Positions 13,622 through 63,998 of a stretch of DNA of 64,000 nt are shown one piece after another. The position numbers were made by a program, and so were the translations under genes. The notes beneath the pieces were generated by a model. The model saw only the letters and a program-made list of their open reading frames with translations. It was not told the origin of the DNA and ran no database searches. Source of the stretch: Candidatus Helarchaeota archaeon. Its GTDB lineage: Archaea; Asgardarchaeota; Lokiarchaeia; Helarchaeales; RDOG01. The number at the start of each line of letters is the position of its first letter. Within the stretch, counting starts at the first letter, position 1. The stretch spans positions 977,432 through 1,041,431 of the forward strand of contig JAHPZH010000001.1 of assembly GCA_019058315.1 (NCBI GenBank), written 5' to 3'.

Positions 13622-13708
13622 TTTCTTTTTTTATAAAATAAAAAAGATAAAATATTTGTTCTTACTAATAATTAATAACCACCTTCAAAAGAGGAGGATT
13701 AATTAAAT

Positions 13709-13864
13709 ATGGTATTATGTTATTTTTGTAATAATAAGGCTGAAAATAATTGTAATGATTGTAATATGCCAGTTTGTAAATTGCATAGCGTGATTATTGA
13801 AAAACAATCATCGACAGGAGAGACTATAGCGGCTCCATATTGTCCAAATTGTTCAACAAAATGA
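13709..13864 (+). CDS. 51-aa stand-alone zinc finger (B-box/AN1-like), absent from the ORF track
   Basis: MVLCYFCNNKAENNCNDCNMPVCKLHSVIIEKQSSTGETIAAPYCPNCSTK*: CxxC-x7-CxxC-x4-CxxH-x18-CxxC. Strong SD GAGGAGG at 13691-13697. Confidence 0.8.
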   Translation: MVLCYFCNNKAENNCNDCNMPVCKLHSVIIEKQSSTGETIAAPYCPNCSTK

Positions 13865-18400: not shown

Positions 18401-18545
18401 CTTTTAATTTTATCTTAGTTGACAAAGCTTCTTCTGTTGCGGAGATTGAGCCACTAGTTAAACCTGAAAAAATTTCTTGGTCTGTCCAATTTAATGAAAT
18501 TAAATCCATGCCATTGTCTTTATCAATAACAGTAAGTTTTGTCAT
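15405..18545 (-). CDS. Large helical / coiled-coil hypothetical protein, possibly with an N-terminal longin-like domain
   Basis: 1046-aa ORF rich in E/K/L/I heptads. The N-terminus LTVIDKDNGMDLI...EIFSGLTS..ISATEE resembles longin beta-beta-alpha starts. Confidence 0.6.
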   Translation of the reverse strand: MTKLTVIDKDNGMDLISLNWTDQEIFSGLTSGSISATEEALSTKIKLKGGDILEDGSRVIYSSSNLLEGFNFANDIYKDVGQQIPFPKFPELITVFHVGPPEIKDEDTTKIRRFGEILSEQILIRKLIGEFSATRVPSQESVINVFRNSIKRWISEGYNSWFTSEQLKINFKEELKNKIPSIIKRVYYTKFKQIEPIIFFNSYEAEKAQKQIIKSIENDIDKFIGQTKVLNEIREQKEKIIMKKFLQLINSLPNLKDELNKYHENLTFTITCLNAEFLGTSNISNHSFNLEQIDMIEAIKELNEEEIKILNQAEFRTTGLNQESLSKYNIELSNSLEDLNIKKIKSQLEKEKEELVRNHQDVSEIDNLISALTEIHVLNQTKMHFEKKFGDLMGELKKIPDLYMELIDQNEKIQEISKDLKMNYIQNAINLVFDDFNENIEIFINNPEYFGLIEKSLMTEFKNFSDLFFKEIGPVSILSDIIEKLDKQTDRKQAKQRKLLDLAILFLENYLNKPIESHAINTFFDIIKKANLQNEFLNELKKYEINDKELTKGNQSFFIEVFQSALIEKTIKNIPKSTPEGLASVREDFLNSLLMIYLDIYNEIFGSVKEENNNFIFTSSELLKIFLDQLIFFINILKYFYVLKALISEVENSQFKTIYFPKVLPLIPPNFQCSSCIECLIEGKELDEIFKIMKREVFKIIGESESYFMDSFSTIPNELRRKNKNFKLNSIKNLEIILEYYDLHKLNEKLISMVKEKKFNVDALYAFPEGKSDDDFKDINLKKIKNTYLKVQKNIRKSAEKEFDILEKNLNSVIQKKYLKYTPKKYPDAKTIAEIQNRLLKKNKKLFDIPYFALCDKIFIRSLIFDDRNLLPFELDQKVKNQKINYNEKLDEIKINVESLVTLRKMLILEVLNDESLRPFLISKINYQDSVPIYSFPLKLSSTLTETLTEDELDNIFGKSILKSENKTDIIGILFDSIKLEEKEENFGNLILSHSFNILRENYNDILEELADIGNTLHSKFEKDFFDELFYQTFRDIKNKISELSE

Positions 18546-23912: not shown

Positions 23913-26900
23913 TTATACTGGAAGAGGGATTAGCTCTTCTTGTTTATAACCAAGTTTCTTTGCCATGTCTGCAGGTCCTCGTCTTGCTATTGCTATTGAA
24001 ACAACCACAACTCCCGCAACAGCACCAATAAGTATATAAATGATCCATGTCTGGTCTTCTCCACCAAGTATAGGTGGAATGAAAGGTGGCTCTTCTTTAG
24101 GTGCAAATGTAACTACTGTGCGTGCTGATTGAGTACCATTTTGGTATTTTTCATCATATGGTGCAATCCAATAATAATAGGTAAGATAATTTGTAACAGG
24201 TAGACCAGAATCGAAATAGAAATTTTCAGTTGTGTTATCAATCCAAGTAGCATTTGGAAAATAATCTTCAATACCTCTATATATACGATATCCAGCAACG
24301 TCATAAGAATCAAGTGTCGCAGTCCAAGTTAGGTTAACGGAATCAGCACCAATTAAAGTATGGGAAAATCCTACACCACCAACAAAATTTGGTGGGGTTA
24401 TATCAATAATTTGGATTGAATCATACTCCCTTTCAGTTGAATTATCACCAGTCGAATTCCTTCCAATGACTGTATAATAGTAAATACCATCATCAACTCC
24501 CCTATCCCAATAATCAGTAGATGGTGCAGATACTGTTGCTATCAAGTTTGCTGCGTTGGGAGTGAATCCAGAGATGTTACTACGGTGAATATCATATTCA
24601 ATAGGGGTCCAATATATTGAAGTTGTCCATTCAATATGGATATCACCATCTTGATCCGGCAAAATAGGATTTGAAATATTAAGAGCTCTAATATTAATAA
24701 AAGTATCATCTCTATTAAATACAAAGGTATAAGAAGCCGAGTTATCTACGGTGTCATTGAGATATATGTCAATATAATTCAAGCCGAATATCAATTCGGG
24801 ATATAATGCGTCCAGGATTGTTATACTTAAAGAATACTCTTTAAGACGTATATTAGTTCCACTTGTATGATTGGTATAATCATTAATGCTAAACCAAACA
24901 GAATCCACCAACCAATTATCATAAGCAGTGAAATCTATTGTATCACCTGGTCCCTGCCATGTCCAAATGACGGAATTATTTGTATGGCTTGTCAGATTTA
25001 ATTTTGGGGGTTGAGATATCAAATTCCAAGTTATATTGACAATAAACATTTCAGGATTACCAAAATCGTTCTTTGAATCATTATACGAAATTCTAATCGT
25101 AGCTCCTTCAGTCACATTTAAAAGATCAAGAGCATCGTTCGTGCCGGAGGTGGTTAAATTAAAAGTACCTGTGAAAATATCAGTATTTAGACCTGATTCG
25201 GTAAGATTGACAAGAATGAAATCAGAACCGCTAGAAACATTTATTGTGACAGTCTGAACTGATAAATCATCTTTGTTTAAGTCCAAATCTGTAATGTTTA
25301 CATAAACGGTGACATTTTCCTGAGTATATTCTTCTAAATCAGTTACAACAATACCATCTTCGGGTCCCGATATTAAAATAAATACCACAGCTGATTCTCC
25401 ACTTTCTTGTGTTTTCTCGTCATATGCTGTTATCCAATAGAAATAAGGTCCACTACTTAAACCACTACTAGAATTTGAGTCTAGATATGTTAATGCGGTC
25501 ACGTTGTCAATCCAAGAACTTAGCATAAAATTATTTACAATACCTCGGTAGATATTAAACCCAGCCACATCATAGGAATCTGTCGAATTAGCCCAATTAA
25601 GACGGGAATTTTCTGCACCAACTGGAGTACCGGTAAACCCTGGTGAAATCCAGGTCGGTGGAGTTGTATCGATGATTGTTATTGATCGATTTTCCCAATG
25701 AGTTGAATTATCAGTTCCATTAAATCCAATAATTATATAATAGTGAATTCCATCGACAGTTCCATTATCTAAGAAATACATATCACTTATTCCTTGTGCT
25801 ATTCGGTTTGTGGCATTAGGAGTGAAATTCGCGGTGGTACTGCGGTAAATATCAAAGCTAATAGGATTCCATGAGGGCGAAGAGTTCCATTCAATGTGGA
25901 CATTGCCATCCGCATCTGGTTCAATATTTGTTTGATTAAGTGGTCTAATTCTAATTAGAGTGTCATCAATAGTAAATGCAAATGTTGCAAAAGTAACATT
26001 ATTTACGAAACCCACGGTGTCATTAGCAAAAATTTCAATATAATTTGATCCATATGTCCAGTCGGGAGCTGATAAATTAACTTGTATTCCAAATGAATAT
26101 TGATCGAATGGTATTGCAGTAGCATATGTCACATTATTACCACCATTAACTCTATACCAAACAGAATCTACCCGTGCATTGTCAGTTGCAGTGAAATATA
26201 GTAAATCTAAGTTCCAAATAATAGAATTATTTGCAGGATTGTCTAGAGCAATTGTTGGGGGACTTACATCTATACTCCAAGTTATATTGGCAGATTTGCT
26301 TTCAATTAAACCACTGCTATTCATTATATCTAAATAATAAATGAGAATATTAATTCCGCCTGTCACGTTCAACTCGTCAGCTGAATCATTAGTACCAGTG
26401 GTTACCAACGAAAAATTGCCTATAAAAACATTTCTATTAGGATTGGATTCAAAACAAATAATATTAATTTCGTCAGTTGTGGTATTGGCAATTATTGTTA
26501 TATTCTGAATTGATAAATCGTTCTTGTTTAAGTCCAAATCTGTAACGTTAACATAAACAATAACTCCATCACCAAAATACTCTGGTTTATCAGTGACAAT
26601 GACACCATCACCATGTGGGGGCATATCAACATCTCTGCTTGGTAATGATGGTCCACTTGCTTGCTCTTTCTCGTCATATGCTGTTATCCAATAATAATAA
26701 GTTGTTGAAACATTTAAACCTGTGTCCAAATATGTCAATTCGGTCACATTGGCAATCCATTCGCTTGTACCTACACTATCTACTATAGATCGGTTGATTG
26801 AAAATCCAGCTACATCATATGAATCTGTCGAATTGGTCCAAATAAGACGTGCCTGTTCTGCACCAACTGATGTAACGGTAAAAGTTAGTTCGCCTAGATT

Positions 26901-56900: not shown

Positions 56901-59900
56901 ACTATCATCAGTAGTAGTTGTACTAACTGAGAATGTATTTCTAAACACACTGGTATTAACATTAGTTTCAGTTAATTCTACAGTAATTCCTGTAGGATCA
57001 CTATTACTCCATACACTAATATTAACTGTTTCATTGGCAAAAGCATCTCTATTTAAATCTTGATCCGTAACAGTAACTGTAGCCACTGCACCAGTACCAA
57101 AATATTCAGTTTCATCTAAATCAATTATGCCAGTATATGTTTTTATCCAAATACAATAAACATTTCTATCAACACCAATTCCATTAATATCTTTATCTTC
57201 CTCAAAAAGAACCCATACTTCACTTGCATTAGCAACTTTAATAATATCACTTGTATCACTACTTGCTGCTGTACTAAAATAAAATATTCCAGTAAATATC
57301 CCTGTATCAAGACCAGTTTCATTAACTGTTACTTGTATACCACTGAGATCTTCCGTACTATTTACTTTAACTTCAAATGTATTATAAGATGTGGGGTTTG
57401 TATTTTCATCGAAGTCATTAACAGTAACTGTAGCTGAAGCTGATGTTCCATAATAGTAGAAAGCATTTAATTCAATAGTTCCACTCACGTATTGATACCA
57501 TATTGCTGTATCAATTTTATCTTCAGGTAATCCGGTTGCATTTTTTGCATCATAATAACGAGCTGTTATCACACTACCATTAGTGGCTTCAATAATATCA
57601 GAATCATCATTACTACTGGTACCAAAAGTAAATGTTCCTTGGAAGATTCCAGTATTTGGTCCGGTTTCTGTACAAGTTACATTAATACCACTCGGATCAT
57701 CATCACTCGTAACATTAATTTTAACACTTTCTGAAGCTCCTGGTAACTGATTTAAATCTGGATCAGTTACTGTTATGTGTGCAGTTCTCCCGGTACTATA
57801 AGTTGCATCGTCTAATACACAAGTTCCGCTTGCAGTTTGAGTCCAAGATGCAGAATCGTTATGTACATCTGCAAGACCAGATGCATTATGAGCTTCAAAA
57901 TACCATGCAAAAATAGTATCTCCTGCTGAATTGACCCAAATTAAGTCATTAGGATCATCACTTGCAGTAATATTAAATGAGAATGTACCAGTAAATACTC
58001 CCGTATTTACACCAGTTTCTGTGCAAGTAACATTAATTCCCGTGGAATCTTGGGTGCTATTTACCGTAGCATTTACAGATTGCTTCGAAGTTACTGCAGT
58101 ATTTAAATCAGCGTCTGTAATAGTAATGGTTGCAGTTTCATAAGTTCCATAAGATGCTTGATCTAAATAAAGAGAACCCGTGACTGTTGCATCAAAAGTG
58201 GCTGTATCTATTGGATCTGCGGAATCTCCAGACTCAGTATATTCATCGTGGTAAGTTACAGTGACAGTATCTCCGTCTGATACTTTAATATATTCTAAGT
58301 CTTTACTATCGGTTAAATTGAATTGGAAAGTTCCGATAAATATGCCAGTATTTGCTCCAGTCTCAGTTAATGTTACATAAATACCAGAAGGATATGAAGT
58401 ACTAGTTACTGTAACATTAACTTGATCAAGGCCACCAGTAGTGTCTAAATCCGAATCGGTAACGTTAACAATTGCTGTCTCACCTGTAATATAATAATCT
58501 TTATCTAAGTCAACAGAACCTGTAATCGTTGCATTCCAAGTTGCAGTATCAATGGGAAATGCAGGATTACCATTTACATCATAAGAATCATTATATATTG
58601 CATAGATTATATCACCATCTGCAGCTTCGATTTTTCCTCCTCCAGAAGTTCCCGTTGTAAAGCCAAATGTATTAGTAAATATTCCAGTTGTCGGACCTGT
58701 TTCAGTAAGTATAACATATATTCCCGTACTATCGCTTGTGCTATTTATTTTCACTATTACTGTATCTGGAGTGCCTTTAACATCTAAATCCGAATCTGTT
58801 ACTGTAACAGATGCAATAACATCAGTCCCAAAATATTCAGTCGAATTTAGTTCGATATATCCTGAAACAGTTTGGTACCATGTTGCTGTATCATAATGAT
58901 TTGTAGGGTTTCCAGTAGCAGTATAAACGTCATAGTAATCAACAGTAACTGTATCACCATCCGAGACTAATATTTCATCTAATGGATCGCTGCTGGTTAC
59001 ATTATCGAATGTAAAGGTGCCTATAAATACACCAGTATTAGGACCAGTTTCTGTACATGTTACATTTATTCCAGTTAGATCCGAATCGCTTGTAACAATC
59101 ACATCAACTACATCATTTCCACTTGTGACATCTAAATCAGAATCCGTAACATTAATGGTTGCAGTTTCTCCAGTATAATATATTGTATCATCTAGCACTA
59201 CATCACCCGTAACAGTTGCATTCCAAGTCGCAGAGTCAGTAACATTTGCAAAGAATCCTTGTTGGTTGTGTTCATCGCTGTATGTGGCATTTATTAAATC
59301 ACCATCAGCAGCTTCAATTTTTCCACTGCCACTGGCTCCTGTTGTAAATCCAAAAGTTCCGATAAATATACCTGAATGAAAATCAGTTTCAGTACATTTT
59401 ACAGAGATACCCGAATTGTCGCTATCACTTATTACACTAATATAAACATCATCTGCAAGCCCTGAGGTGTCTAAGTCCATATCAGTAACATTTATTTGTG
59501 CAATAGCACCAGTTCCAAAGTATGCTGTAGCATTTAGAGTTATAGTACCCGTTACAGTTTCTATCCAAGTGGCAGATTTCTTAGGTCTTTTAGGATCTCC
59601 TGCAGAATCATAAGTATCATTGTAAATAGCTCGTACAATATCATTATCTGTTACTTGAATTGAGGTCCCTGGAACGCTTGCTCCAGTAGTAAATCCAAAA
59701 TATCCTTCAAATATACTAGAATTCGCATTCAATTCTGTTAAAGTTATAATAATACCACTATTATCAGATGTACTATTCACATTTACATTAATTGTTTCCT
59801 GAGTTCCCTCATCTTGATTTAAATCTCCATCAGTAACTGTAATTTTAGCACTTGTTCCAGTACCAAAATATTGAGTACTATTTAATGAAATAGACCCCGT

Positions 59901-62900
59901 AACGGTTTGGGTCCAATATGCAAAATCTAATACTAAAACTTCTGCACCAGTAACATCATACTGATCCATGTATCCAACCATGATCGTATCATTATCTGTA
60001 GCTTTTATATAATCGCTTGCATTATTACTAGAGGTGGTACTAAAGTAAAATGAACCTGTGAATATTCCAGATGTTCCCGTAGTTTCTGTCAAAGTTACCA
60101 ATATGAATCCAGCTCCGGGTGCGGTACTATTTACACCAATTTCGACATTTTCTTGACCAGAAGTTGTATTTAAGTCATAATCAATAACAGTGACATTTGC
60201 AATGGCATCTGTACCAAAATATTCTAGAGCATCAAGGTCAATTGTCCCACTCATCGTTTCAATCCAAGTTGCTGTGTCACTTGGAGTGTCGGGGTCACCC
60301 GTAGAAGTGTGATTATCATTATAAATCACTTGGACAGTATCATCATCAGACACACTAATTTGTGTTCCCGGAACACTTGGACCAGTTGTAAAACCGAACG
60401 TGCCAGTAAATACACCAGTATTAATGCCTGTTTCATTCAAAATAATAGTAATGGAACTAGGATCAGTTGTACTATTTACAGTAACATTAAATGTTTCTAC
60501 AGCAAGGGGATTTTGATTCTCATCGTCATCTATAACCGTTACAAGAGCAATTGCTCCCGTTCCATAATAATAAGTTGCATTTAAACCAACTGATCCTGTA
60601 GTAGTTTCCGTCCAAATTGCAGTGTCGGTCACAATAACAGGATTACCTATTTGATCGTGTGCATCATCATAAATGGCAGTTATGATATCTCCATCTGTAG
60701 CTTTAATAATATCGCTTGCATTATTACTGGACGAAGTACTAAACCAAAAGTTACCAACAAATATTCCAGTAGAAAGTCCTGTTTCGTCTAGTGTTACATA
60801 AATGAACCCAGCGCCAGGGGCAGTGCTATTAATTCGAATATCCACATCATCAGGATTGATGTCACTTATATTTAAATCTGTATCATTCACAGTCACTGTC
60901 GCTACAGCATCAGTTCCGAAATATTCTATTGCATCTAACTCAATCGTACCGTTAGTGGTTTTATACCACCAAGCACTGTCGGTAAATTGAGCATATTCAC
61001 CTGTACTTGTGTGAGAATCGTTATATCTGACTCCAAATAAATCGCGATGATCTACCCAAATTGTATTAGTGCCACTACCGGTGGTACTGAAATAAAGTAG
61101 CCCCGTAAAATTTGCTGTATTAGGACCAGTTTCTGTTAAATTCACGTATATACCAGTCATATCAAGCGGACTTATTACGTTTACTTGAACCCAATCTATA
61201 GTTGTCGCCGATATATTCAAATCCCGATCTATTACCGTAATAGTTGCGATAGCTCCAGTTCCATAATAGAAAGTTTCATCAAGCGAAACCGATCCAGTCC
61301 AGGTTTCATCCCAAGTTGCATTATCGATCCTGCTTGTAACATTTCCATTAAAATCTTTTTCATCTATATATATAACAGTAATTTCATCTAAATCTAATGC
61401 TTTAATAATATCGTCAGCATCACTGGATGAACCTTTTGTAAATGTGAAATTACCAATGAAGATGCTAGAATTAACTGAAATTTCTGTGCACCTAACTCCA
61501 ATTCCAGTCGAATCACTATCACTTATTACTTTTACGTCAACATATTCTCTAGATAATGGATCTTTATTCAAGTCAGCATCAGTAACGTTAATATAAGCTA
61601 CAGCCCCAGAACCATAATAGACATCTTCATCTAAATAAACACTTCCATTATCAAACCAAGTTTGAACAGTATAATTATAATTAGGAAGAGTGGCATTACT
61701 ATCATCTATACCCCAATTACCAGCAGTATCATTGGCAAAAACTCTGTAAATTACTGTAGTGTTATAGAGTTGGGGAGGGATTAATGAAATCCAGACGGAT
61801 TGATTTCCAAAGTAATCTAACATTAATACATTATTCCATGTAAGATTACCTAGGATTCTATATTGTAAAATGACCGTATCAATACCACTTGCTTCTTCAG
61901 GTTCTATAGCCCAGGATCCTACATATACAGTGGTATTATAATAAACAGGAATGGGTCCATGACCAGTACCAGGCTGCCATGGAGGTTCATTATCAGTAAT
62001 TGTATAATAATATTGAGAAGAAATAGTTGATTGCCCATTACCGTCTGTAATATTAAAATAAAAGGTTAAATTAAACCCATATGGAGGTGGTTCCCAAAAT
62101 TGCGCGAACCATAACCCAGAAGTAGAATTATAAGGTAAATTATCAACACCACTCTCAGATACACCGGCATAGGACACGTTCCACCACACTTGACACCAAT
62201 AGATAGAACTGTAAGGGGGTCCAAATAATGTATCAGTAGCATTGATTGTAACATTCATAATTTCATTATATTGCCATTGTCCTGGAGGATCGGGAGGATT
62301 TATTGTTATATTATTAAATATAGGAGGATTGAAATCAGTATCTGTAAAATTATAAAACATTCCGGTATTATTATCAACCCCCCAATTCCCTGCTTTATCT
62401 TGGACAAGAAAATAATAGGAATAGAACTGACCTCCAGCTAGAGGGGTAGAATAAGTCCAAAGATCTGGAGTTAATTGTGCCATTGTATAATTGAAATATG
62501 ATCCACCACCAATAGATATAGAAATTATGGAGACATTAACTCCCGAAGCACCGATCGGTTCTGTAGCATTCACAATAAACGTTGTTGAGGCTGGATTAGC
62601 AGGCATTGTTTGATAATAGAGTTCTAATTCAGGAGGATCATAATCAACTACAGTATAATTAACTGGTCCGATGGTTACATTATTATAATTTCCATCACCT
62701 ACTTCAATCATAGCATCTATAGTTGAATTATATGGAAATTGAGGGCTGGTTGTTACCCAATGAGAACCATTATATTCGAGATAACCCTCAAAAGGAAGTG
62801 TTTTATTCATAAATCCATAGATTTTAACATATAAGATATTACTGAATAATGGAGCACCTAAATCATCTTGGGCATCAATAGCTACTGTTATATTTTGATT

Positions 62901-63998
62901 ATATTGTAAAAATGGAGGAAGAGGATCAACAATTACATTATTTATAATTGGAATCCAAACATCTCCCACTGTATATTTATAAAACAAACCATAATGGTCA
63001 TCAATACTTGGATTATCATTTTGATCATATGCAACTATATAGTAGGTAAAATTTGTAGAAGGATTCGCAGGAGGTATCCATCCTAAAGTATCCACTCGGT
63101 AATGATTACCACTTATAAAAGTCATAGGAATTGGGAAAAAACCAGATTTATTAAAACTAATCCAACACTCTACATTTCTAACACCAGATGCTTGCCAAGG
63201 TTCGGAAACAAAAGCGCTAATTCTTAAATTTTCCTGAAGAGGACCACCAGAATTATAACTAGAATGATTTACAAAATCAATATCAGGTCCATTGAAATCA
63301 TCATAATAGTATATATATGGACCATCAATCATCCATTCGTTTATATTATTAGTAGCGTTGAGATAATACCAAGCTGTTGTGCCTGATCGACCCCATTCTT
63401 GAAGATCGTATCTCCAAATTGCAGGTTCCCAAGGATTTTCTTGATACATAGGGTATGTGGCTAAAAATCCAGTAATATTAGAATACATAGTTACGTTAGT
63501 AATAGTCCAGCCCAAATCATCCGTTACATTTACCAAAAAATTGATCTGTTGATCATAATTATATGTGAGATCTGGTGGAGATGGATCACGCCTATGAAAA
63601 TTAAATACAGGCATAAAGGATTCAACTGGATTTAATATTCTTTGGTGAATTTCTGCTTCATTATTTTGATAATATTGAAAAATTTGATTTATAATTAAGT
63701 CATTATTAAATTCATCTAGCACGTTATCTGCAACAAGTTTTGCAGTATCTACTGAAGCAACCATATAATCTATAATTCCTTCATAACCACTAATTATTAA
63801 TTCCATTTCTGAATCTAACCCCGTACCAGAATAACAACTTAAGAAGTAGTGATTTTCAATGGTAGACCCCAAAACTGCACTTTGGACTTCATTCCAAGGA
63901 ATTTCTTGAGTCCCAATAATTAGATTTTCTTCAGTCCCATGTAGAGCATAAATGACAGCGAGGGCATTATTATCATTTAAATTTGTAATTACATCATT
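23913..63998 (-). CDS. Giant (>=13,361 aa, 5'-truncated) membrane-anchored Ig/FN3-repeat surface protein with a clan CD protease-like domain
   Basis: A single stop-free frame. The 42 codons upstream of the track's TTG at 63872 are also open to the window edge. T/D-rich beta repeats, many N-x-S/T sequons, C-terminal TM helix. Confidence 0.95.
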   Translation of the reverse strand, partial: NDVITNLNDNNALAVIYALHGTEENLIIGTQEIPWNEVQSAVLGSTIENHYFLSCYSGTGLDSEMELIISGYEGIIDYMVASVDTAKLVADNVLDEFNNDLIINQIFQYYQNNEAEIHQRILNPVESFMPVFNFHRRDPSPPDLTYNYDQQINFLVNVTDDLGWTITNVTMYSNITGFLATYPMYQENPWEPAIWRYDLQEWGRSGTTAWYYLNATNNINEWMIDGPYIYYYDDFNGPDIDFVNHSSYNSGGPLQENLRISAFVSEPWQASGVRNVECWISFNKSGFFPIPMTFISGNHYRVDTLGWIPPANPSTNFTYYIVAYDQNDNPSIDDHYGLFYKYTVGDVWIPIINNVIVDPLPPFLQYNQNITVAIDAQDDLGAPLFSNILYVKIYGFMNKTLPFEGYLEYNGSHWVTTSPQFPYNSTIDAMIEVGDGNYNNVTIGPVNYTVVDYDPPELELYYQTMPANPASTTFIVNATEPIGASGVNVSIISISIGGGSYFNYTMAQLTPDLWTYSTPLAGGQFYSYYFLVQDKAGNWGVDNNTGMFYNFTDTDFNPPIFNNITINPPDPPGQWQYNEIMNVTINATDTLFGPPYSSIYWCQVWWNVSYAGVSESGVDNLPYNSTSGLWFAQFWEPPPYGFNLTFYFNITDGNGQSTISSQYYYTITDNEPPWQPGTGHGPIPVYYNTTVYVGSWAIEPEEASGIDTVILQYRILGNLTWNNVLMLDYFGNQSVWISLIPPQLYNTTVIYRVFANDTAGNWGIDDSNATLPNYNYTVQTWFDNGSVYLDEDVYYGSGAVAYINVTDADLNKDPLSREYVDVKVISDSDSTGIGVRCTEISVNSSIFIGNFTFTKGSSSDADDIIKALDLDEITVIYIDEKDFNGNVTSRIDNATWDETWTGSVSLDETFYYGTGAIATITVIDRDLNISATTIDWVQVNVISPLDMTGIYVNLTETGPNTANFTGLLYFSTTGSGTNTIWVDHRDLFGVRYNDSHTSTGEYAQFTDSAWWYKTTNGTIELDAIEYFGTDAVATVTVNDTDLNISDINPDDVDIRINSTAPGAGFIYVTLDETGLSTGIFVGNFWFSTSSSNNASDIIKATDGDIITAIYDDAHDQIGNPVIVTDTAIWTETTTGSVGLNATYYYGTGAIALVTVIDDDENQNPLAVETFNVTVNSTTDPSSITIILNETGINTGVFTGTFGFTTGPSVPGTQISVSDDDTVQVIYNDNHTSTGDPDTPSDTATWIETMSGTIDLDALEYFGTDAIANVTVIDYDLNTTSGQENVEIGVNSTAPGAGFILVTLTETTGTSGIFTGSFYFSTTSSNNASDYIKATDNDTIMVGYMDQYDVTGAEVLVLDFAYWTQTVTGSISLNSTQYFGTGTSAKITVTDGDLNQDEGTQETINVNVNSTSDNSGIIITLTELNANSSIFEGYFGFTTGASVPGTSIQVTDNDIVRAIYNDTYDSAGDPKRPKKSATWIETVTGTITLNATAYFGTGAIAQINVTDMDLDTSGLADDVYISVISDSDNSGISVKCTETDFHSGIFIGTFGFTTGASGSGKIEAADGDLINATYSDEHNQQGFFANVTDSATWNATVTGDVVLDDTIYYTGETATINVTDSDLDVTSGNDVVDVIVTSDSDLTGINVTCTETGPNTGVFIGTFTFDNVTSSDPLDEILVSDGDTVTVDYYDVYTATGNPTNHYDTATWYQTVSGYIELNSTEYFGTDVIASVTVTDSDLDVKGTPDTVIVKINSTSDSTGIYVILTETGPTTGIFTNTFGFTTGTSGGGKIEAADGDIIYAIYNDSYDVNGNPAFPIDTATWNATITGSVDLDKDYYITGETAIVNVTDSDLDTTGGLDQVNVTVTSTSYPSGIYVTLTETGANTGIFIGTFQFNLTDSKDLEYIKVSDGDTVTVTYHDEYTESGDSADPIDTATFDATVTGSLYLDQASYGTYETATITITDADLNTAVTSKQSVNATVNSTQDSTGINVTCTETGVNTGVFTGTFSFNITASDDPNDLIWVNSAGDTIFAWYFEAHNASGLADVHNDSASWTQTASGTCVLDDATYSTGRTAHITVTDPDLNQLPGASESVKINVTSDDDPSGINVTCTETGPNTGIFQGTFTFGTSSNDDSDIIEATNGSVITARYYDAKNATGLPEDKIDTAIWYQYVSGTIELNAFYYYGTSASATVTVNDFDENTNPTSYNTFEVKVNSTEDLSGIQVTVNETGLDTGIFTGIFYFSTAASSDTSDIIKVANASEVWVLFEEDKDINGIGVDRNVYCIWIKTYTGIIDLDETEYFGTGAVATVTVTDQDLNRDAFANETVNISVWSNSDPTGITVELTETNVNTSVFRNTFSVSTTTTDDSNDIIKVSPDDTITARYSDARTALGTPAQPTDTAIWTATVTGSIELDELEYYGLSTATVTVTDSDLNTDPGTTQSVYIYVTSTTDTSGIQVQCDETLVDSGIFTGTFTFTTLGSDDPGDEINVTDGDIVTVRYYDEHNVTGLAQNHSDTADWTQTYTGTIELDAATYYGTAARAYVNVTDPDLNTNDATKQSVSIQVWSTSDPYPSGINVLLWETTVNSGIFYGNFSFGTTTSDPLDRIEAVDGDTISARYSDAKNMYGNPVTTTDTATWEATVTGSVDLDATIYYGSGAEATITVIDSDLDTTGGTDSVNVNVTSTSDGAGISVQLDETGGSTGIFTGTFTFKLTAPSDDILDRIYVQDDDTITVRYDDEHTASGASASPTDTATWIKTYSGTVVLDAGIYYGSDAMASITVTDADLNTNPGVIETVDVNVNSSLDASGIIVELTETGVNQSTFTGTFTFSTSGSNDPSDEIWAQDGNTTMVIYNDTRSASGASARPKDSATWEATVTGTINLNATTYYGTDVVAEITVEDSDLDTSGSADYVDVNVNSTSDNEGIIVRLTETGSNTGIFKGNFYFSTSSSNDPSDIIWAQDDDTVRTIYNDTYTVTGASARPKKSATWIETHTGTIELDATSYYGTAAEATITVIDADLNINPSVAETIDVNVNSSKDPQPGIIVRLTETDVNTNTFTGKFTFTESGPSNDPADKIWAQDGNTTMVIYNDSRTAEGTPAKPKDTATWIKTYTGTVDLDKLTYYGSGATAYITVEDEDLDTTGGSDTVDVKVNSTSDPNSIEVQLTETGGSTGIFTGHFEFKTTAPSDDALDKIWVTDDDTVMVIYNDTYTVTGSSANPKDSATWIATVTGTIILDVDTYYGTGAIPIITVTDSDLDTTGSADTVDVYVTSTSDSTGISVQLTETGATTGIFNGTFIVSTIASSDPDDKILVADEDIITVRYEDEHTLSGASANHTDTATWIATVTGTIELDADYYYGTGATAYITVVDADLNVTGSPDTVEVNVTSDSDSIGISVPLTETGDNTGIFNGSFIFTKGSSNDPANIIKALDGDTITVRYDDEHTLTGASASPTDTATWVETVTGTIALDQTEYFGTDAEITATVTDSDLDTTSGTDTTTINVTSSSDGAGIQVQLTETGPTTGIFSGTFYVNVTSNDTADMIQVVDDDSITARYDDAHTITGPPGSTSDSATWIETITGVLSLNNTIYYGSAAIALFTVNDFDENENPSGIDNIIIKVTSSQDSTGINVTLTETGVNTGIFNGTFGFKITSPSDDTNDLIYALNGSNIRAYYTDVHDETGESANPYKQAIWIETMTGDVYFDNNVYYPNQTAVITLNDTDLDISSSVDQINVTVTSDSDTTGINVTLTETGATTGIFQGLLNFSKTTSNDNLDIIEVSDGDTVTVQYYDEHDESGADIYDTDTATWEQTHTGTIQLNATEYFGTAAKARITVDDLDLDTTASPDTVSVNVTSTSDGYGIFILLTETGATTHIFTGIFGFTSGASVPGTSIQAVDGDIITSRYDDEYDYNGYPNAPTDTATWNATITGSVSLDKEDYITGETAFINVTDSDLDISGSPDQVNVTITSDSDAIGINVTLTETGASTGVFTGNFTFKLTSPSDDVLDRIYVQDGDAVTVTYHDEYTVTGTSANPIDTATFDATETGSLDLDQSSYGTYETATITITDADLNTAATSKQSVNATVNSTQDSTGINVTCTETGVNTGVFTGTFSFSITASDDTNDLIWVNSLGDTVFAWYFEAHNYTGLADVHNDSASWTQTASGTCVLDDATYSSGRTAHLTVTDPDLNQLPGAAESVKVNVTSTDDPSGINVTCTETGPNTGIFQGTFTFGSSSNDDSDIIEATNGSSIIARYFDANNATGLPAYVNDTAIWYTYVSGSILLNAFYYYGTSAIATITVEDFDENQHDDQYDTINIDVNSSVDLIGIGVECNETGLDTGVFTGTLYFSTAASNDANDIIKVANASEVWALYDESKDINGDSVSRNDYGMWIKTYTGTIILDADEYFGTGAVAIITVTDQDLNKKAGVVEKVNVSVWSTSDPTGIKVELTETGVNTSVFTDNFTFGTTSNDPLDIIKAVDGDTITARYTDARTATGAPGNPTDTATWTATVTGTVELDDDDYFGLSSATITVTDSDLNTDSGSTQSVIIYVNSSIDPTGIQVLCTETSVSSGIFTGVVYFNNTASNDATDDIYVINGGDFTVKYNDEHTITGASASPTASANWTKTWSGTINLDASIYYGTAARAFVTVTDHDLNTNNATSQTVSIEVWSTSDPAGINVLLRETTVSSGIFYGNFTFGTTSSDPSDRIKATDGDTITVRYTDQYDIGGSPTTRTDTAIWEATVTGSILLDKTSYYGTSASALITVTDLDLDTTGGADTVNINVTSDTDANGIGVICTETGTHTGIFTGTFYFSQTGSDDDSNIIWAQDQDTVYARYDDEHTSSGASASPTATATWIKTYTGTIDIEQATYYGTGALAIVTVVDQDLNTNPTLKESKNINVNSSSDPSPGIIVRLYEEGLNSSTFRGNFTFSTAGSSDPSDIIWAQDGDTVRAIYNDSRTASGSSTRNKDSAVWIETVTGTIQLNATIYYGTAAVAKITVTDLDLNTTGSQDYVDVNVNSSVDSSGIIVRLTETTGVSGIFEGTFTFKTTSPSSDALDIIWAMNGNTTRAIYNDTHTVSGASARPKVSATWIARVTGTIQLNATTYYGTDTVAKITVTDSDLDTTGGIDFVDVDVNSTSDNIGIEVRLFEAGGVHTGVFEGTFKFSTISSDNPSDIIKALDGDTVKAIYNDSRTVTGKPGKPKRTATWIETDTGSIELDKTAYYGTAAVATIIVNDDDLDTSGSPDTVNVRVNSSNDPVGIIVQLTETGASTGEFNGTFTFKLTYPSDDPNNKIWIGDGNTTMVIYNDTYTATGKSATPKDSATWIKTYTGIVVLDKAQYYGTAAIATITVTDADLNTNPSLTETVIVNVNSSVDPSPGITVTLTETGADPLNSPIFRGTFTFIESGPSNDPLDKIWAEDGNTIMVIYNDARTASGSSAKPKATATWIKTYTGTIVLDAANYYGTGATATVTVNDKDLDTTGSLDTVNINVTSTTTGAGSISVQLQETGGTTGIFDGVFYFSLSSSNDLQDRIKIHDGAVVTVRYDDQYTVTGASASPTDTANWIQTYTGTVELDEDYYYGTLATASVNVIDADLDTTGGLDTVSINVTSTQDSSGISVILTETGASSGIFLGSFKFSTTSSNDGEDEIWAIDGTIVTVRYDDQRTATGAPASPTDTATWIETASGTIDLDKLNYYGTGATATITLSDADLNLDSGSIDHVNVTVNSTTNSTGINIQLAETAVNTGIFTGSFTFSTTINDDPNNKLHALDNDLIKAIYSDAQKVTGLPGYATDTATWIATVTGTIVLDDVEYITGETAIVLVNDSDLNTNPATLQTVMIDVWSTSDTIGIDVLLTETGFNTGIFNGTFEFTFGTSSDPLDLIKVAEGATITVRYNDTYTVTGVSATKTDTATFDATVTGSIDLNAGTYYGTKAATITVIDADLNENSAGIDIVNVTVKSDTDGTGINVTLSETGVNTGIFTNIFTFNTSSSSDIDDWIHVTDDDTVTATYYDAHDVSGAPAQPTDIATWIETFTGSIYLDSLSYITGEIASINVTDADLNQNPSLRETVIISVKSDSDTTGISVTLTETAINSGIFEGYFSFSKVQSNDTADEILVSDGDTVTVTYNDQYDETGSAAIHTDTAIWYATYSGTIVLDKTRYGTNEQAIVTVTDSDLDVTGSADDVNISVTSDATGAGTITVELTETGAHTGVFRGNFSFSLIASNDTTDTIKVKEEGTVQVQYDDEHDVNGNPTTVYDTALWRAFVTGTIVLNKLVYSGNETATITINDYDLNTNDLIAETVNALVNSSQDPTGIFVTCTETGPATGTFIGTFKFNITTSDDTNDYIWMNAGAGDTVYVYYNDSNDASGAQAWAFDSGSWTQYVTGVLDLDTNEYYGTADTAYVTITDVDLNVLPGVTETVTILVNSTEDGVGININCSETGPNTGIFTGNFNFSTSSSVNYQRIWIADGATIWVIYTDPHGVGGTAENVTETATWIATVTGIINLDKSNYYGTQALATITLTDSDENEEPLIIETVSVKVNSSDDSSGINVLLTETGADTGVFVGNFTFSTSSSNDPLDVIKVLDGNTTKVIYNDLKDVTGFPSVRTDSATWIATVSGSVSLDKTQYYGLTTASITVNDFDLNIQPTLLDSVAVNVYSDSDTTGIWVTLTETGVNTGIFTETFDFTTGTSNDPLDYLSVSDQDVVTVKYEDQYDVTGQTVDVYDTATWIETFTGNVQFDSANYYGTGAQALITVTDWDLDTTGSADSVAVNVNSTLDSSGIIVTLTETGPSTGIFTKYISFSTSASGTDTIWATDGDTIQVRYNDSRDVTGSPNYDTDSAIWTATVTGSVVLNATTYYGTAVVARITVTDADLDTTGSPDTVDVDVNSTSDSTGISVQLTETGSTTGIFRGTFTFSKSASNDPSNIIKAIDNDNVTVIYFDEHIVTGPAANHTYKAKWVETATGSISLDATEYFGTAAEATVTVIDADLNQDALTQESINIYVNSSIDIPGITVTLQENGVNSSTFTGTFRFSQTSSSDVLDIIHAQDGDTTMARYNDEHTAGGAPATPKDSAIWIATVTGTITLNQLNYYGTDAIANVTVNDKDLDITTGIDSVDVNITSESDGYGITVELTETGSLTGVFQGQFYFDTSSSSDIDDEIWAIDDDIVTARYDDEHKSSGLSGNATDTATWIATVTGTIILDAANYYGTAAQALITVTDNDLNTNPSIVNYVDINVNSSSDSPGIIVRLTETGADTGIFQKTFKFSTVSSDDPNDIIEAQDGDTVRAIYNDTYTVTGASARPKTSATWIATHTGIVVLNASYYYGTAAVAKITVTDSDLDVTGSADTVDVYVTSDSDSSGIVVQLTETGPNTGIFNGTFEFSTTASNDPADIIWAIDDDTVTVRYEDEHIATGVSSNITNTATWIQTYTGTIALNQETYYGTAATATVIVNDWDLDTTGSADSVNITYRSTSDLTGTLLELTETGPSTGIFQLNFLILGSITINDGDTITVRYNDTRRVTGKSGYTTDTATWIATVTGSITWDEEYYYGTGAIGDITVIDSDLNITGGADTVNVNISSTSDPTGIIIILTETTGTSGIFTDSFQFQGGGVTIADGDTVTATYDDEHTLTGAPASQTDDAVWIETHTGIVNLDASEYFGTGALATINVTDPDLDTSPAIDHIDVNVISTSDSSGINVTLDETGGQTGIFIGTFGFKTTSPSDDTNDKIWAQDGNTVTIRYFDVHIASGASSYRTDTAIWTATVTGTIILDDTVYYGTGAMSIITVTDSDLNTNPSAIEFVNINVTSDSDTGGINVTCQETGVNTGIFTGNFTFNMTASNDGSDIILALDGDTIYARYDDQYTVTGAAASPTDTATWIETHTGTIELDATEYITGESPNVFVIDEDLDTSGSPDTVIITVSSTAPAAGSITVELTETGATTGNFTGFFGFTFGSSSQAAHKIKVVNGSIVTVSYNDAYTATGSPATVTDSAIFIATVTGSVLLDKITYYGTGAASITVTDSDLNENSTVIDTVNVTITSDTDGTGINVTLSETGVKTGIFTGTFTFNTSSSSDIDDWIHVTDDDIVTVTYYDAHDVSGASASPTDTATWIETVTGSIYLDAVSYITGESPIVTVNDADLNQNPSVKETVVIYVTSDSDATGISVTLTETAFNSGLFQGYFSFSKIQSNDTADEIYVSDGDNVTVTYIDIHDITGAQVSTTDTAIWYATYTGTIVLNKDRYGTGETAIITVIDSDLDVTPGQDAVNISVVSTTDPTGITVECTEEVATPGEFRGTFTFTDVGTSNDTLDIIRVVDEGTITVQYNDEHADDGNPANPIDTAIWRKSTTGIIQIDKTSYTGYVYTVYVTVTDSDLNLFDVSIDIAWVNITSKDAPGWVNLTVTETGVDTGIFTGWFVFGTSSNNASRQIGMTDDASPQWVIVEYNDTLDATGANKHPFKNATWTKYYTGTITLDEIQYFGTGDIATVTVTDADLNTDNTTIEQSSITVQSSTGTPISVIITENSISSSIFTGSFGFNLGFSNDSSDLIGIAAPQEVVTAIYADAFNANGVPNNPNDTATWIATITGTIDLDYDQYNGTLAEAVITVNDNDLNTNPGTSQTVNVIVSSDSDPSSITVQLTETGPNTGIFNGTFTFNLTSSDDDNDIIWAQDGDMIYATYTDALNETGFPDSDTDTATWNATVTGIVILDADEYFGHSTATITVYDSDVNTDDATVQWFMVTVNSTSSGDFINVNLTETTSSSGIFQGTFTFISTASSNVTVRIHIEDGNNVYVYYNDEMSVTGLSDYVSNSSSWVKTWTGTITYIGPDEFYGTDSYAQVRVTDPDLNTNPSVTETVTINVTSTADPVGIQVVLTETGTNSSAFEGIFNFTTGTSNDPLDLIKVTGGDVISAIYTEQYDINGLPQTRTALGEWIKTYTATMVIDDHETNEEDEIMYYGGLAVAWITLTDADLNTNPSLIESYWINISSDSDPIGFQIELIELSNNSQKFRRSFTFTTGASDSANRKIKVADLDNVTLIYEDIHTSTGENATIVKNIIWDQTATGSINFDASTYFGTAAVAVITVVDSDLNIDQYDNDTVNVRVWSTDDPWPPGGISVQLVETDVNTSQFIGTLEFSQSASDDFNDIIYALDGSIITARYADAHDVTGVSVVQTTDATWDETFSGTINIQESIYYGTGVSALVTVTDADLNTDPYSTNYVDIKVNSTSDNAGITVRLYETSLNASTFTGYFYVDTIVSSDINDKIQVADGNTMKAIYLDAHTAIGITTNKSDTAIWIETDTGTITLDKATYYGTAASALITVEDEDLNTNPLVINDVDVNLNSTDDPIGITVNLEETGPDTSIFTGSFTFTTGASDDINDIIKVLDGHNIMVIYNDTYTITGTSARPSDSAVWEKTYSGTINIEQTTYYGTGATGLIIVTDIDLNTNPATNQTVDIKVTSTSDPSPGITVRLYETGVNTSIFQGYFYVDTSSSSDIDDEIWVSDGDTITARYLDAHTASGPASNKTDTAIWIKTSTGDITLDKTTYYGTAAIATITVTDADLNTNPTITETVNVKVNSTSDSIGINVILTETGAIPQNSSIFRGTFQFTTGPSDDINDKIQALDGNTVKSIYYDTHTVTGASAIPSDSAIWEQTTTGSINLNSTTYYGTAAVAQVIVNDADLNTNPSAINYVTVNVNSTSDNSGINVQLTETNINTGIFTGTFKFSISGSDDPSDLIWALDGDTVRAIYNDTHTVTGASARPKKSALWIETETGSIALNAENYYGTAAIATVIVTDSDLNTNPLTPQTVSIDVWSASDLIGINVLLTETGINSNNFQGDFEFSTAASNDPADIILALDDDLITVRYNDTHTITGNPGTSLDTAYWRETHTGTITLDELNYYGTDAEATIEVIDIDLNTNPSAINYVTVNVNSSSDPTGITVQLAETLPDSSIFQGTFKFNTTSSNDVLDLIWAQDDDIVRAIYNDTYTITGASARVKDFAYWIATITGSIGLNSSSYRTGQIAEITVTDNDLNTGSGTIQVVNIFVTSTSDSPGGIIVPCTETGVNTGIFVGVFKPTSASSSNATTPRTLHVSDGDIITAYYYDVHTNSGAPADVYAYANMTVTVTGTIGFDSEGYGTGESAIITITDSDANENKIGYDQVWVIVTSTLDSTGINITLTETAISSGIFTTQLNFSKLGSWESNNTIHVQDNTFVSSRYLDRWDITGKPKNVTDTVTWNEYVTGVAVFDDTWYQTINHYATITLTDEDENRDVGAIDTFDIKVTSSVDATGILVTLTETGNSTGIFVGSLGYNMTVSNDALDQIQVDNGSIITVTYDDENDAGGNPAQSIDTALWTEHVTTEYSFVTDTYYGTAAFVDITLIDRDEDIDAYAIDLIEVNVSSDSDPGTINVDLTETDINTGIFTGSFTFKTTAPSDNVLDRIYVQGSDSVWIWYWDLNISDIYEWSNYTFTWIETHTGNITFDSTDYYGLTTAIVTLIDDDLNQNSTIIESKIINVNSTTNPTGITLTLTETGVDSNEFKGNFTFSLTTSSSALRLLRVSDLDSVNCIYQDARNISGTAMTRKNSSIWHITDTGTLQIDSLTYYGSGAIANITVTDEDLNINPGDFDTVNVTVNSSTNQIGINVTLIETGINTATFIGTFNFSQTSSLDGYTIQALDGDIINVLYTDLSNGSGLTNILMTTSQWIETFTGNLTLDAQYYYGTATVATVSLDDRDLNNFPGLIETTQIYLSSTLDLVGFSLTLTETGINTGIFTNTFFFSQTGSIPGSRIIYARNGTIIQVNCTDTRNETGILDYHFDTAYWIKTYTGSINLDDIIYYGTGAIMEITVYDLDHNRSSITTEVIYVNVTSPSTPAGIMVDLIETGPNTGTFIGNVTFSTTISDNASNILQVSNLETITAKYYDEHTASGPAANPTDTATWDETFTGTILMDEEYYYGTGAEATVTVNDNDMNLDSGNIEWFRVNINSSSDPSGILIRLYETGNNTGIFTGTFTFKTSSPSDDASDIIWAVDSDTVMALYNDSHTAIGPAARPNDTAIWIATDTGSIALDKVIYYGTAAVGNITVSDSDLDVTGGADIVEINVTSTSDPAGINVTCTETGPSTGVFIGLFTFNTTGSNDGLEIIHAISGDSVTVRYDDQYTVTGASASPTDTATWIQTFSGSIQLNSSVYYGVDAVIFVKVFDEDLNITGGIDTVSVSVTSDSDLVGISVTLSETTGTSANFTGIFTVSLTASDDPSNIIKIANQNTINVTYSEARNEEGIPVELIANATWLETETGTVVLNSSTYYGTLAVAKITVIDQDLNVDSGVNDTADVTVNSSTDLIGITVTLNETNINTGEFTGTFTFTMGGSDDFNDIINVTDEDEISVLYYDAHDVSGAPAQPKDTATWDQTHSATIASLPAFYYGLSENNQIQIDDIDMDFTVIAVTFIPDTLTAKVNSTSDPNGITLILSELFPTDAEFFTVFSFTDGPTYGKFLHVEDGDTIGVYYYDNHTTEGYPIWQVATSTWIKTYTGTLSTNATGGFTFEGLGTTAMITVRDQDLNQNPLAQDVIAAIFSPVSVYTQGNESLNTIKIELIENGIDTDEFIGYFNFTLGDKDDAKQMINVDDNVIIIVKYEDANEITGDPVDVFRQAQFLLPANGIIYLPSPEYFGDPVTVTVAIIDKDLNQIPTAQETATINATSSPSDLIHIIIYENGTNSDTFIGQFDLGSLATSDPDDHLFVNIGENVTILYFDEKDINGTSQIRFVNITYSALPLPPTLNLISPANNSFDWSGTLLHFSASDNWKLDSVWYNINGGPNITVATNIGLKDHLFDINASLDDPYWINGQNNLTIYANDSINLLDTLRISFIIDNTLIKIIPLNQTNIEPDTDGNILINWTISPEWSPISFYIYRSTTPGFTPNAANLLAQGITDMYYLDNGTVDGLHYYTIIGFNGTLNSTRWEYGSILINDIFGPNWNLGDLTFTVTLVGTENARLIWTNSTDAYDVAGFSINRSTIDDVDTSVWIANVTELTYLDTGLSIGTHYYWITAYDEKGRASGPSFSRFVTIIGPEDGFVESDEGEYYGANAIVYVNITDMDLNQDDLTLQTVTINISCGSDWILVNLTEVSLNTNLFTGNFTLVTTGTNDALDLLNVTDGAIITISYLDEKNSSGISETLTVDLTWNLLPQSPTINLESPANNSVIWSGTYLYFNASDNWLVDSIWYSVNGGSNSTPTNVDLKEYSFAINATGEAPWISGVNNITIYANDTRNLVASLDVSFIIDDTLIKLIPLDVPNPVIPDPDGNIRIEWNSSSAWNPISFDIHRSTNPGFTPNATNRIATGIPWPTNYYIDNGTDDGLYYYTIIGFNGTHNSTRWEYDSIQIIDTTPPIWNLGELTFTVTSVGAEQARLIWTNSTDSYDVAGFSINRSIVDSVGTSEWIANVTELTYLDTGLNVSTTYYYWITAYDEKEQASGPSLPSRDVDMPPHGDGVIVTDKPEYFGDGVIVYVNVTDLDLNKNDLSIQNITIIANTTTDEINIICFESNPNRNVFIGNFSLVTTGTNDSADELNVTGGINILIYYLDIMNSSGLIESKSANITWSIDVSPPTIALDNPANNSIIWNLDLLYFTATDNARVDSVWYRVNGGNNVTYATAIPFDQYSFGIQVNLSAPDWTYGSNYIEIFANDTVGFVNNVTFATFAFTIDDTLIRIRPLNQTNIEPDADGNVHIEWNSSPSWNPISFDIYRSTTANFTPNATNRIAQGISDMYFLDNGTVDGIHYYIIIGFNGTDNSTHWENRSITIIDTTPPTWISPGFTGTPVGAENSRLNWANSTDSYDVAGFNIYRGIVNNFMLSSWIDNVTALTYLDSNSSSGLSSGPYFYWITAYDEKTQESGESAVVFILISGPEDGIVVTDLEEYTQENVTVYVNITDLDLNKDDLSVQTVTINVSSGSDFILVNLTESGLNTDIFTGTFNLTTSGTNDALDLLNVTEGATIRISYNDSKNDFGNPEMFIVNITWNLISQPPKLNLTSHTNNSVIWTWQGPGDTIDFTAYDNWLVDSVWFSINDYTNHTSGTNIRLKEYSLSITILDALYPELIFGLNYIDIYLNDTVDNSASYTFVFNRDDTFINIRALNISNPILPDQDGDIHIEWTTSIYWTPIEYDIHRSNISGFTPNAANLIATVSAPSTDYWDRGVDDGIYYYTVIGRNSTGDNSTEREYDSIQIIDITPPNFVGGVGFSHTLIGADSVNLTWTATLDSYDVAGYRIYRGIEDYFPNATWIDNTTENFYFDSGLPVTNYLTYYYWIAPYDEKYQNGTQSARTVVTFAPKEEPPFIPPILGGEDQTWIIYILIGAVAGVVVVSIAIARRGPADMAKKLGYKQEELIPLPV
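23985..24047 (-). other. Single C-terminal transmembrane anchor of the giant protein
   Basis: WIIYILIGAVAGVVVVSIAIA followed by RR (positive-inside), preceded by the Pro-rich PKEEPPFIPP linker. Confidence 0.9.
24100..29100 (-). repeat. Four tandem ~415-aa modules: ETG-type Ig repeat + Ig + FN3 + FN3
   Basis: Recurring PP.(L/I).L..PANNS, RST..(G/N)FTPNA.N, (S/T)YDVAG(F/Y), YYWI.(A/P)YDEK. The exact 27-mer TTTCTCGTCATATGCTGTTATCCAATA occurs at 25413, 26667 and 27909. Confidence 0.88.
28755..61650 (-). repeat. 94 tandem ~116-aa Ig-like repeats (hand count; 3 more copies lie in the C-terminal modules)
   Basis: Consensus TG(T/S)I.LD...YYGT.A.A.ITVTD.DL(N/D)......V.V.V.S..D..GI.V.LTETG..TGIF.G.F.F....S.D..D.I...DGD.I.V.Y.D....G......DTATW. 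Confidence 0.93.
61660..63595 (-). repeat. Six Ig-like domains arranged as three AB pairs
   Basis: A type: (D/N)P.PP....YN..I.V......D.LG. B type: EP..ASG(V/I)...M...Y....D..(G/D)N..ID(D/N)...Y.(Y/F)T. Confidence 0.7.
63650..63998 (-). other. Caspase/gingipain/CHAT-like (clan CD) cysteine-peptidase segment
   Basis: AVIYALHG (His 63939-63941) ... HYFLSCYSG (Cys 63834-63836), 35 residues apart, followed by IISGYEGIID. Confidence 0.6.

Follow-up and report, generated by a model that had tools for sequence, protein, structure and literature searches.

The giant RTX adhesins, among them the 1.5-MDa ice-binding adhesin of Marinomonas primoryensis, LapA and SiiE, carry an extender of about 100 tandem immunoglobulin-like (Ig-like) domains; they are exported by type I secretion and have RTX repeats at the C terminus, and their N-terminal part keeps them in the outer membrane. 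Halomucin of Haloquadratum walsbyi comprises about 9,159 residues. Ig-like domains also build the S-layer protein NmSLP of Nitrosopumilus maritimus (Nmar_1547; PDB 8c8k/8c8m), in which ten such domains form an Asp-rich, Lys/Arg-poor chain of 1,734 residues with at least 17 N-glycans (PMC11153153). NmSLP has no transmembrane (TM) helix of its own and assembles into a hexagonal, cation-concentrating lattice that channels ammonium (von Kuegelgen et al. 2024, PMC11153153). Archaeal proteins of more than 10,000 residues, mostly from Asgard archaea, have been counted without their architecture (West-Roberts et al. 2023, bioRxiv 10.1101/2023.11.21.568195), and a UniProt-wide study of huge proteins (>5,000 residues) reports, at least in part of its text, relatively few from Archaea (PMC11573180). 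Cultured Asgard archaea bear an amorphous protein coat with protruding, sometimes bridging surface densities that have not been assigned to proteins (PMC9834061; bioRxiv 10.1101/2025.11.06.686947). Here we describe a gene in a stretch of 64,000 nt from a Candidatus Helarchaeota archaeon (GCA_019058315.1, contig JAHPZH010000001.1, below C3; the stretch, C3:977432-1041431, is called the window) that encodes a membrane-anchored surface protein of 13,734 residues, the giant, in which 97 predicted S-layer-type Ig-like domains make up most of the chain.

A complete gene for a giant surface protein

On the minus strand of the window, a frame of 13,361 codons without a stop occupies 23913-63998 and is still open at the window edge. 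On the contig beyond the window (the genome comprises 12 contigs and 5.79 Mb, with 94% completeness and 6.6% contamination), this frame extends to an in-frame stop at window-equivalent position 65154, and its first ATG lies at window-equivalent 65117, preceded by a GAGGG Shine-Dalgarno-like motif and also by an AT-rich spacer of about 650 nt. The 40-kb open frame of a preliminary description, which had been made from the window alone, is thereby completed to 13,734 residues. The gene contains no N gaps. At its composition, the chance that such a frame stays open is P ~1e-465, and the other five frames of the gene contain 614-1,835 stops. The product has a mass of 1.478 MDa and an isoelectric point of 4.05, and is rich in Thr (15%) and Asp (9.9%) and poor in Lys (1.8%) and Arg (1.4%). 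We mapped its units with a de novo hidden Markov model (HMM) over the full-length protein, which found 97 units of about 116 residues, here called core units. The features are as follows, all on the minus strand and, unless a contig is named, in window coordinates (FN3, fibronectin type III).

C3:1001344-1042548, minus: the whole giant gene (41,205 nt; 13,734 codons plus stop)
23913-64000, minus: the part of the giant gene within the window (from frame, extension and start)
64001-65117 (window-equivalent), minus: the first 373 codons, with the signal peptide (residues 1 to about 30) and three FN3-type domains
63618-64000, minus: distal head, part 1 (residues 374-500 of an alpha/beta segment at about 330-500)
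61671-63614, minus: distal head, part 2 (residues 502-1149; three double modules of about 215 residues)
28791-61670, minus: extender (residues 1150-12109; 94 tandem core units, from the HMM map)
24048-28790, minus: membrane-proximal stalk (residues 12110-13690; four cassettes of one Ig-like domain of about 110 residues and two FN3-like domains, with three core units between them)
23985-24047, minus: single C-terminal TM helix (residues about 13691-13711, from hydropathy; a Pro-rich neck precedes it)
23916-23984, minus: predicted cytoplasmic tail of 23 residues (13712-13734; membrane-adjacent basic RRG...KK..., end ...EELIPLPV)

The N terminus consists of a basic n-region and a 15-residue hydrophobic core followed by ..SAS, and reads as a Sec-type signal peptide; the preliminary description had proposed to look for one upstream. 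Hydropathy windows of 19 residues exceed 1.8 solely at this signal and at the C-terminal helix (peak 2.86), in agreement with the one C-terminal TM helix and 23-residue tail proposed earlier. Anchoring through PGF-CTERM and archaeosortase was considered and set aside, since the protein has no PGF motif and continues for 23 residues after the helix. N-x-S/T sequons, already described as dense, number 420 against 223 ± 13 in shuffled sequences (1.9-fold enrichment) and are densest in the stalk (5 per 100 residues); the genome encodes an oligosaccharyltransferase, STT3/AglB (C1:173831-175039), and this match sits within an open frame of unusual length (1,627 residues). Net charge is -8 to -13 per 100 residues along the whole chain, with a total of about -1,400. 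We conclude that the giant is a real, complete single-pass type I surface protein.

The extender holds 94 of the 97 core units in unbroken tandem with constant 6-residue linkers, and the remaining three are interleaved in the C-terminal module. The last 1.6 thousand or so residues contain four Ig-like and eight FN3-like domains, ordered as four cassettes of Ig-like, FN3-like and FN3-like. In the head, FN3-type domains lie at residues 55-119, 151-225 and 247-313, all beyond the window; the middle one matches Pfam fn3 (E 1.9e-8) and the outer two are FN3-like. The total comes to about 118 beta-sandwich-type domains and one alpha/beta segment. These HMM counts reproduce the 97 ETG-type, four Ig and eight FN3-like domains reported from the window, and the extended contig adds three more FN3 domains. 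The six N-terminal Ig-like domains of the same description correspond to the three double modules (residues 502-1153), for which an Ig-like fold is putative. Neither Pfam nor NCBIfam matches the double modules; about ten other loci of the genome encode relatives with 24-30% identity. The stalk cassette, whose Ig domain matches Big_7 (Pfam) weakly, recurs once, at C3:~621.9-627.1 kb with 45% identity. Because double modules and cassette both recur, the giant appears to have been assembled from modules of the organism's other surface proteins. Matches below the Pfam cut-offs to Intu_longin_1, DUF4785_2nd, Ig_J, CBM_10 and DUF7035 were taken as noise.

A repetitive gene of this length could be an artefact or a relic, that is, a repeat assembly that is chimeric or expanded in error, a contig from a contaminant, or a pseudogene in decay. 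Such an origin would fit the metagenome-type assembly with its estimated contamination, the lack of an orthologue in relatives and two segments of about 190 nt, nearly identical to each other (51531-51717 and 57822-58008), that interrupt an independent assembly. Against it, the core units are 43% identical on average (typically 22-64%), exact DNA repeats in the gene all stay below 75 nt, and long DNA self-alignments of the gene are at most 70% identical. One sediment-metagenome run contains 99% of the sampled words and is the probable source run. In Logan's independent assembly of this run, window 39001-59000 is present without a mismatch or gap, on three contigs (23.6, 6.1 and 10.5 kb) that break only at the two segments just named and whose even, single-copy depth (15.5-17.3x) excludes collapsed repeat copies. 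The preliminary description had also asked whether the true sequence contains stops; the independent assembly agrees over these 20 kb and none was found. Runs from two other studies yielded short contigs 90-99% identical to the gene, over 19-28 of 30 bins. The 38 best-supported listed differences in these related populations fall mostly at third codon positions (27, with 8 at first and 3 at second positions), a bias that points to purifying selection on the giant protein and, like a frame open over 41 kb, speaks against decay. Finally, C3 carries a match to ESCRT-II EAP30 and at least 15 strong matches to Ras-family GTPases, which flank the window on both sides and belong to 103 such matches in the genome; the genome also encodes a full-length eukaryote-type actin (448 bits, profile positions 6-408). 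An Asgard origin of the contig, as surmised from the window, is well supported by this gene content. On this evidence, we regard an artefact or relic as scarcely credible.

The core unit and the growth of the array

No Pfam family matches the core unit, either with the whole protein as query or with one unit and E values as high as 1. Its consensus holds invariant D..D, E, G and F residues. We built a profile and an AlphaFold (AF2) model of two units from 47 di-domain rows, and the model (predicted local distance difference test, pLDDT, 96.5; predicted template modelling score 0.85) shows two beta-sandwiches whose orientation to each other is defined. In a Foldseek search with the model the best match was N. 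maritimus NmSLP (E 9e-15, 22% identity), and VIA-align placed NmSLP at Z 15.3 over 211 residues (26% identity), with complement MG domains as the next fold class at Z ~9. The di-domain profile, run against PDB sequences, likewise found NmSLP (8c8k_A, E 2.8e-31), several of whose domains were matched, and the signatures D.DLN and ETG.NTG.F.G are common to the core unit and NmSLP. Although each single domain matches, the root-mean-square deviation between NmSLP and the model is ~12 Å across two domains. Two core units also align with positions 1045-1269 of the NCBIfam model for the Kustd1514 S-layer glycoprotein (NF052345; E 4.6e-22), but with 77.3 bits against a cut-off of 1,400 the giant shares the domain and is not a member of that family. 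Profiles and model together identify the core unit as a predicted S-layer-type Ig-like domain, homologous to domains of NmSLP and Kustd1514; the beta-sandwich-type repeat recognised earlier is of this type and not a generic Ig domain. As a whole protein, the giant is no ordinary S-layer subunit.

Both characterised proteins that share the core domain form S-layers, one in an ammonia-oxidising archaeon and the other in an anammox bacterium, and both organisms live on ammonium. This link may be coincidence, or it may reflect a cation-binding chemistry of the core domain.

We searched 1.84 billion representatives exhaustively with the profile and obtained 5,115 clusters with the core unit at E <=1e-3, 481 of them at E <=1e-30. 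Among the best 150 family members, the longest protein has 7,799 residues and the largest array, scored with our own HMM, 43 units. When a word-based search was restricted to lengths of 5,500-17,500 residues, it found four proteins only (23-25% identity); these distant giants of 6.1-7.8 thousand residues look bacterial, as they have no TM helix, contain LysM and are rich in Ala, Gly and Pro. Following the suggestion in the preliminary description that orthologues be sought in Asgard genomes, we searched for the core unit at E <=1e-3. None of the 40 nearest genomes, drawn from its own family, order and class, has it; among 399 further genomes of the phylum four do, in frames of 299-2,224 residues that score 29-116 bits against ~300 in the giant. 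The giant is not a conserved Asgard feature, and its array looks like a lineage-specific expansion. The same genome encodes three smaller paralogues with the core unit, in frames of 1,164, 1,388 and 1,948 residues, at these loci:

C3:794173-798339, minus: core-unit paralogue
C9:91089-96935, plus: core-unit paralogue
C3:~121987-124326, minus: core-unit paralogue

We parsed two of them and found a signal peptide, 9 and 7 units, respectively, and a TM anchor, with units that score like those of the giant. By size, the smaller paralogues are more plausible as coat or S-layer-like proteins of this organism.

The array retains a record of how it grew. Of the 94 tandem units, 26 have their closest relative at a distance of exactly 18 units; units ~9-24 pair with 27-42, and units 44-47 with 62-65. 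The closest pair is the following:

51198-51893, minus: units 29-30, with 88-91% protein identity to units 11-12 (57489-58184)

This periodicity indicates that the array grew through segmental duplication of 18 units (6.3 kb), of which units 29-30 and 11-12 are the freshest trace. Near-identical patches (51198-51893 and 57489-58184; ~39350-40050 and 45600-46290) lie inside 18-unit duplicates that are otherwise 50-70% identical, and suggest that the super-repeats either underwent recent gene conversion or arose by a very recent duplication and then diverged unevenly.

A proposed projecting fibre and its alternatives

We think it rather probable that the giant projects from the cell as a fibre or tether and that its head is functional. 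Counting in favour are the complete gene with signal peptide, TM helix and tail, a head set apart from the extender, the confident two-unit model, the homology to S-layer proteins and a composition like that of NmSLP, the sequon enrichment alongside STT3/AglB, the signs of selection, the smaller paralogues of like plan, and the coat with its protruding, sometimes bridging densities on cultured Asgard cells (PMC9834061; bioRxiv 10.1101/2025.11.06.686947). The Sec signal peptide would export the protein, and the C-terminal helix with its short basic tail would retain it in the membrane. From the membrane outward, the stalk of four Ig+FN3+FN3 cassettes would be followed by the acidic extender and then by the distal head, which combines three FN3 domains and six beta modules with one orphan alpha/beta domain. 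The extender could act as a long, N-glycosylated, polyanionic spacer that keeps the head far from the cell, where it might bind or tether partner cells, particles or the cell's own protrusions. Ig-like domains measure ~4 nm each, so that ~118 domains in a straight chain would span ~0.4-0.5 µm; the reach of several hundred nm and the tether or fibre role put forward in the preliminary description are reasonable on this view. The invariant Asp..Asp and Glu, together with the charge of about -1,400, suggest cation binding, which might make the rod stiffer, as happens in bacterial extender domains, or raise the local cation concentration, as NmSLP does. Glycosylation, length, rigidity and an adhesive role are properties that we infer for the giant.

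Several observations count against a fibre. The estimated length presupposes a straight chain, and the nearest characterised relatives of the core unit form two-dimensional lattices, not fibres. Pfam, NCBIfam and the look-alike search found no ligand-binding domain of known specificity in the head. Among the sequencing runs listed as containing the gene's sequence, none is from RNA. No orthologue was found among the 400 Asgard genomes searched, a negative tempered by the fragmentation of metagenome-assembled genomes and the limited number of candidates scored, and any role would be lineage-specific. The order of the three Logan pieces across the two joints of ~190 nt is supported by short reads and by their evenness of depth.

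If the giant instead lies in or forms a surface coat and does not project, that coat would be a thick, polyanionic layer made of the 97 acidic, glycosylated domains, packed laterally against one another or against the paralogues with 7-9 units; it would trap cations and shield a fragile cell. The homology of the core unit to domains of two experimentally characterised S-layer proteins is what such a coat would lead one to expect, as are the S-layer-protein-sized paralogues in the same genome and a composition that is acidic, Lys/Arg-poor and sequon-rich like that of NmSLP, whose charge concentrates cations (PMC11153153), with net charge uniform along the chain. Cultured Asgard cells, moreover, do carry an amorphous protein coat (PMC9834061; bioRxiv 10.1101/2025.11.06.686947). 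Size and design, however, argue the other way: S-layer subunits are abundant proteins of about 0.5-2 thousand residues, and one of 13.7 thousand would be without precedent; a distinct head and a distinct stalk make a polar, end-to-end design; and the two-domain model is end-to-end with confident orientation, in a geometry unlike that of NmSLP. We consider a coat or lattice component rather unlikely, and continue to favour the projecting fibre.

The head segment (residues ~330-500) bears on what the fibre would carry. It is predicted to be alpha/beta, not Ig-like, and is unique in sequence: Pfam and NCBIfam (at E 1 or 0.1) and PDB sequences gave no match, and neither homologues in longer or near length bands nor a paralogue in the genome were found. 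It contains ..AVIYALHG.. and, 35 residues on, ..HYFLSCYSG.., each after a hydrophobic predicted strand, which places His393-Gly394 (63936-63941) and Cys428 (63834-63836) each at a predicted strand end. HG...C at strand ends is the catalytic-dyad arrangement of clan-CD peptidases. Language-model look-alikes of the whole head include Peptidase_C13/C25 clusters (0.75-0.77), and those of the segment alone include CHAT clusters (0.91 and 0.89). A single-sequence model of the segment is of low confidence (pLDDT 46); its top Foldseek matches are caspases, MALT1 and SAVED-CHAT (E 8e-3 to 4e-2), whereas VIA-wide, an aligner independent of Foldseek, gives higher scores to periplasmic-binding-protein lobes, LacI and lumazine synthase (Z 7-8) than to caspases and CHAT (Z 6.5), which there tie with many Rossmann-like folds. 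A clan-CD (caspase/CHAT-like) fold is possible but doubtful, and we treat it as a lead only. A stronger version takes the head as a clan-CD (caspase-, CHAT- or gingipain-like) cysteine peptidase and its activity as the main function of the giant, an enzyme on a stick that would act on proteins of partner cells or particles or cleave the fibre itself. The spacing of the two motifs, the look-alikes and the Foldseek matches all lean this way. The lack of any sequence match or homologue, the low model confidence and the VIA-wide ranking tell against it; a segment of ~170 residues is also short for a complete caspase fold, and chance can produce a His-Gly...Cys pattern. We find this version improbable.

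Joined together, these elements would give a fibre of S-layer-type blocks, about half a micrometre long, with a caspase/CHAT-like tip and binding modules, that reaches, tethers and perhaps proteolytically processes partners or particles; this combination, too, has little probability in our estimate. If true, the giant would be a concrete candidate for the material of the bridging densities at the surface of cultured Asgard cells, and for the contacts between cells on which models of eukaryogenesis draw.

Genomic setting and comparison with known systems

The giant gene stands alone among housekeeping genes (methyltransferase, DRG GTPase, acyl-CoA dehydrogenase, ProRS), and its context therefore gives no hint of function. 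About 650 nt upstream, on the same strand, lies a gene for a predicted membrane protein of 108 residues (C3:1043200-1043526, minus; window-equivalent ~65769-66095). Within the window, two further minus-strand open reading frames, of 1,046 residues (15405-18545, in a surrounding region of low GC, 23%) and 405 residues (7786-9003), match no Pfam family.

In size the giant exceeds halomucin, as stated in the preliminary description, but it is no record: Asgard proteins of more than 10,000 residues have been published, and the same genome contains a frame of 14,439 residues (C5:999863-1043179, minus). That frame differs from the giant in composition (T 6.4%, K+R 7.1%), has hydrophobic segments near residues 443, 876 and 907 and no core units, and its first 10,000 residues match in Pfam only Big_13 and, below threshold, a prenyltransferase toroid. 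Two further proteins, of 6,782 residues (C1:219122-239467, minus) and 3,682 residues (C11:252577-263622, minus), have a signal peptide and a C-terminal TM helix and are Thr/Asp-rich and Lys/Arg-poor like the giant, without the core unit. Frames of at least 2,000 residues number 27 in the genome.

Giant Asgard proteins are already known as a class. New here are the largest array of S-layer-type domains among the top-ranked members of the family, the apparent reuse of such a domain in a TM-anchored extender, a head with an orphan alpha/beta domain and a legible duplication history. Cultured Asgard archaea lack an ordered S-layer, and their surfaces mediate the syntrophic contacts central to ideas on the origin of eukaryotes. 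For such a surface coat or its fibres, the giant offers a fully specified and well-validated candidate, within the limits that the organism is uncultured, the gene lineage-specific and the function putative. It further suggests that S-layer-type Ig domains can be reused as the extender of a TM-anchored giant. The core unit defines a large domain family (the 5,115 clusters above) that has no Pfam model, and the 18-unit duplication leaves array growth open to reading.

Set beside the systems with which we began, the giant resembles each in part. Like NmSLP, it is a tandem array of Ig-like domains, Asp-rich, Lys/Arg-poor and with many sequons; unlike NmSLP, it has 97 units and 21 other beta domains, a TM anchor of its own, a distinct head and stalk, and a different angle between domains. 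Kustd1514, from the anammox bacterium Kuenenia stuttgartiensis, is the second characterised S-layer protein with a domain of the core-unit type, but it is bacterial and its family model spans only ~1,600 positions. With the RTX adhesins the giant shares a cell anchor, a long tandem Ig-like extender, a distinct distal head, a mass of ~1.5 MDa and an acidic character; it differs from them in its Sec signal and C-terminal TM helix, its reversed polarity and its repeat family, and no RTX or BIg-type Pfam family matches anywhere in the protein. Halomucin is likewise a giant extracellular protein of an archaeon, and is set beside it by size. Eukaryotic Ig/FN3 adhesion receptors have the same layout of signal peptide, Ig/FN3 ectodomain, TM helix and tail, a likeness of layout only.

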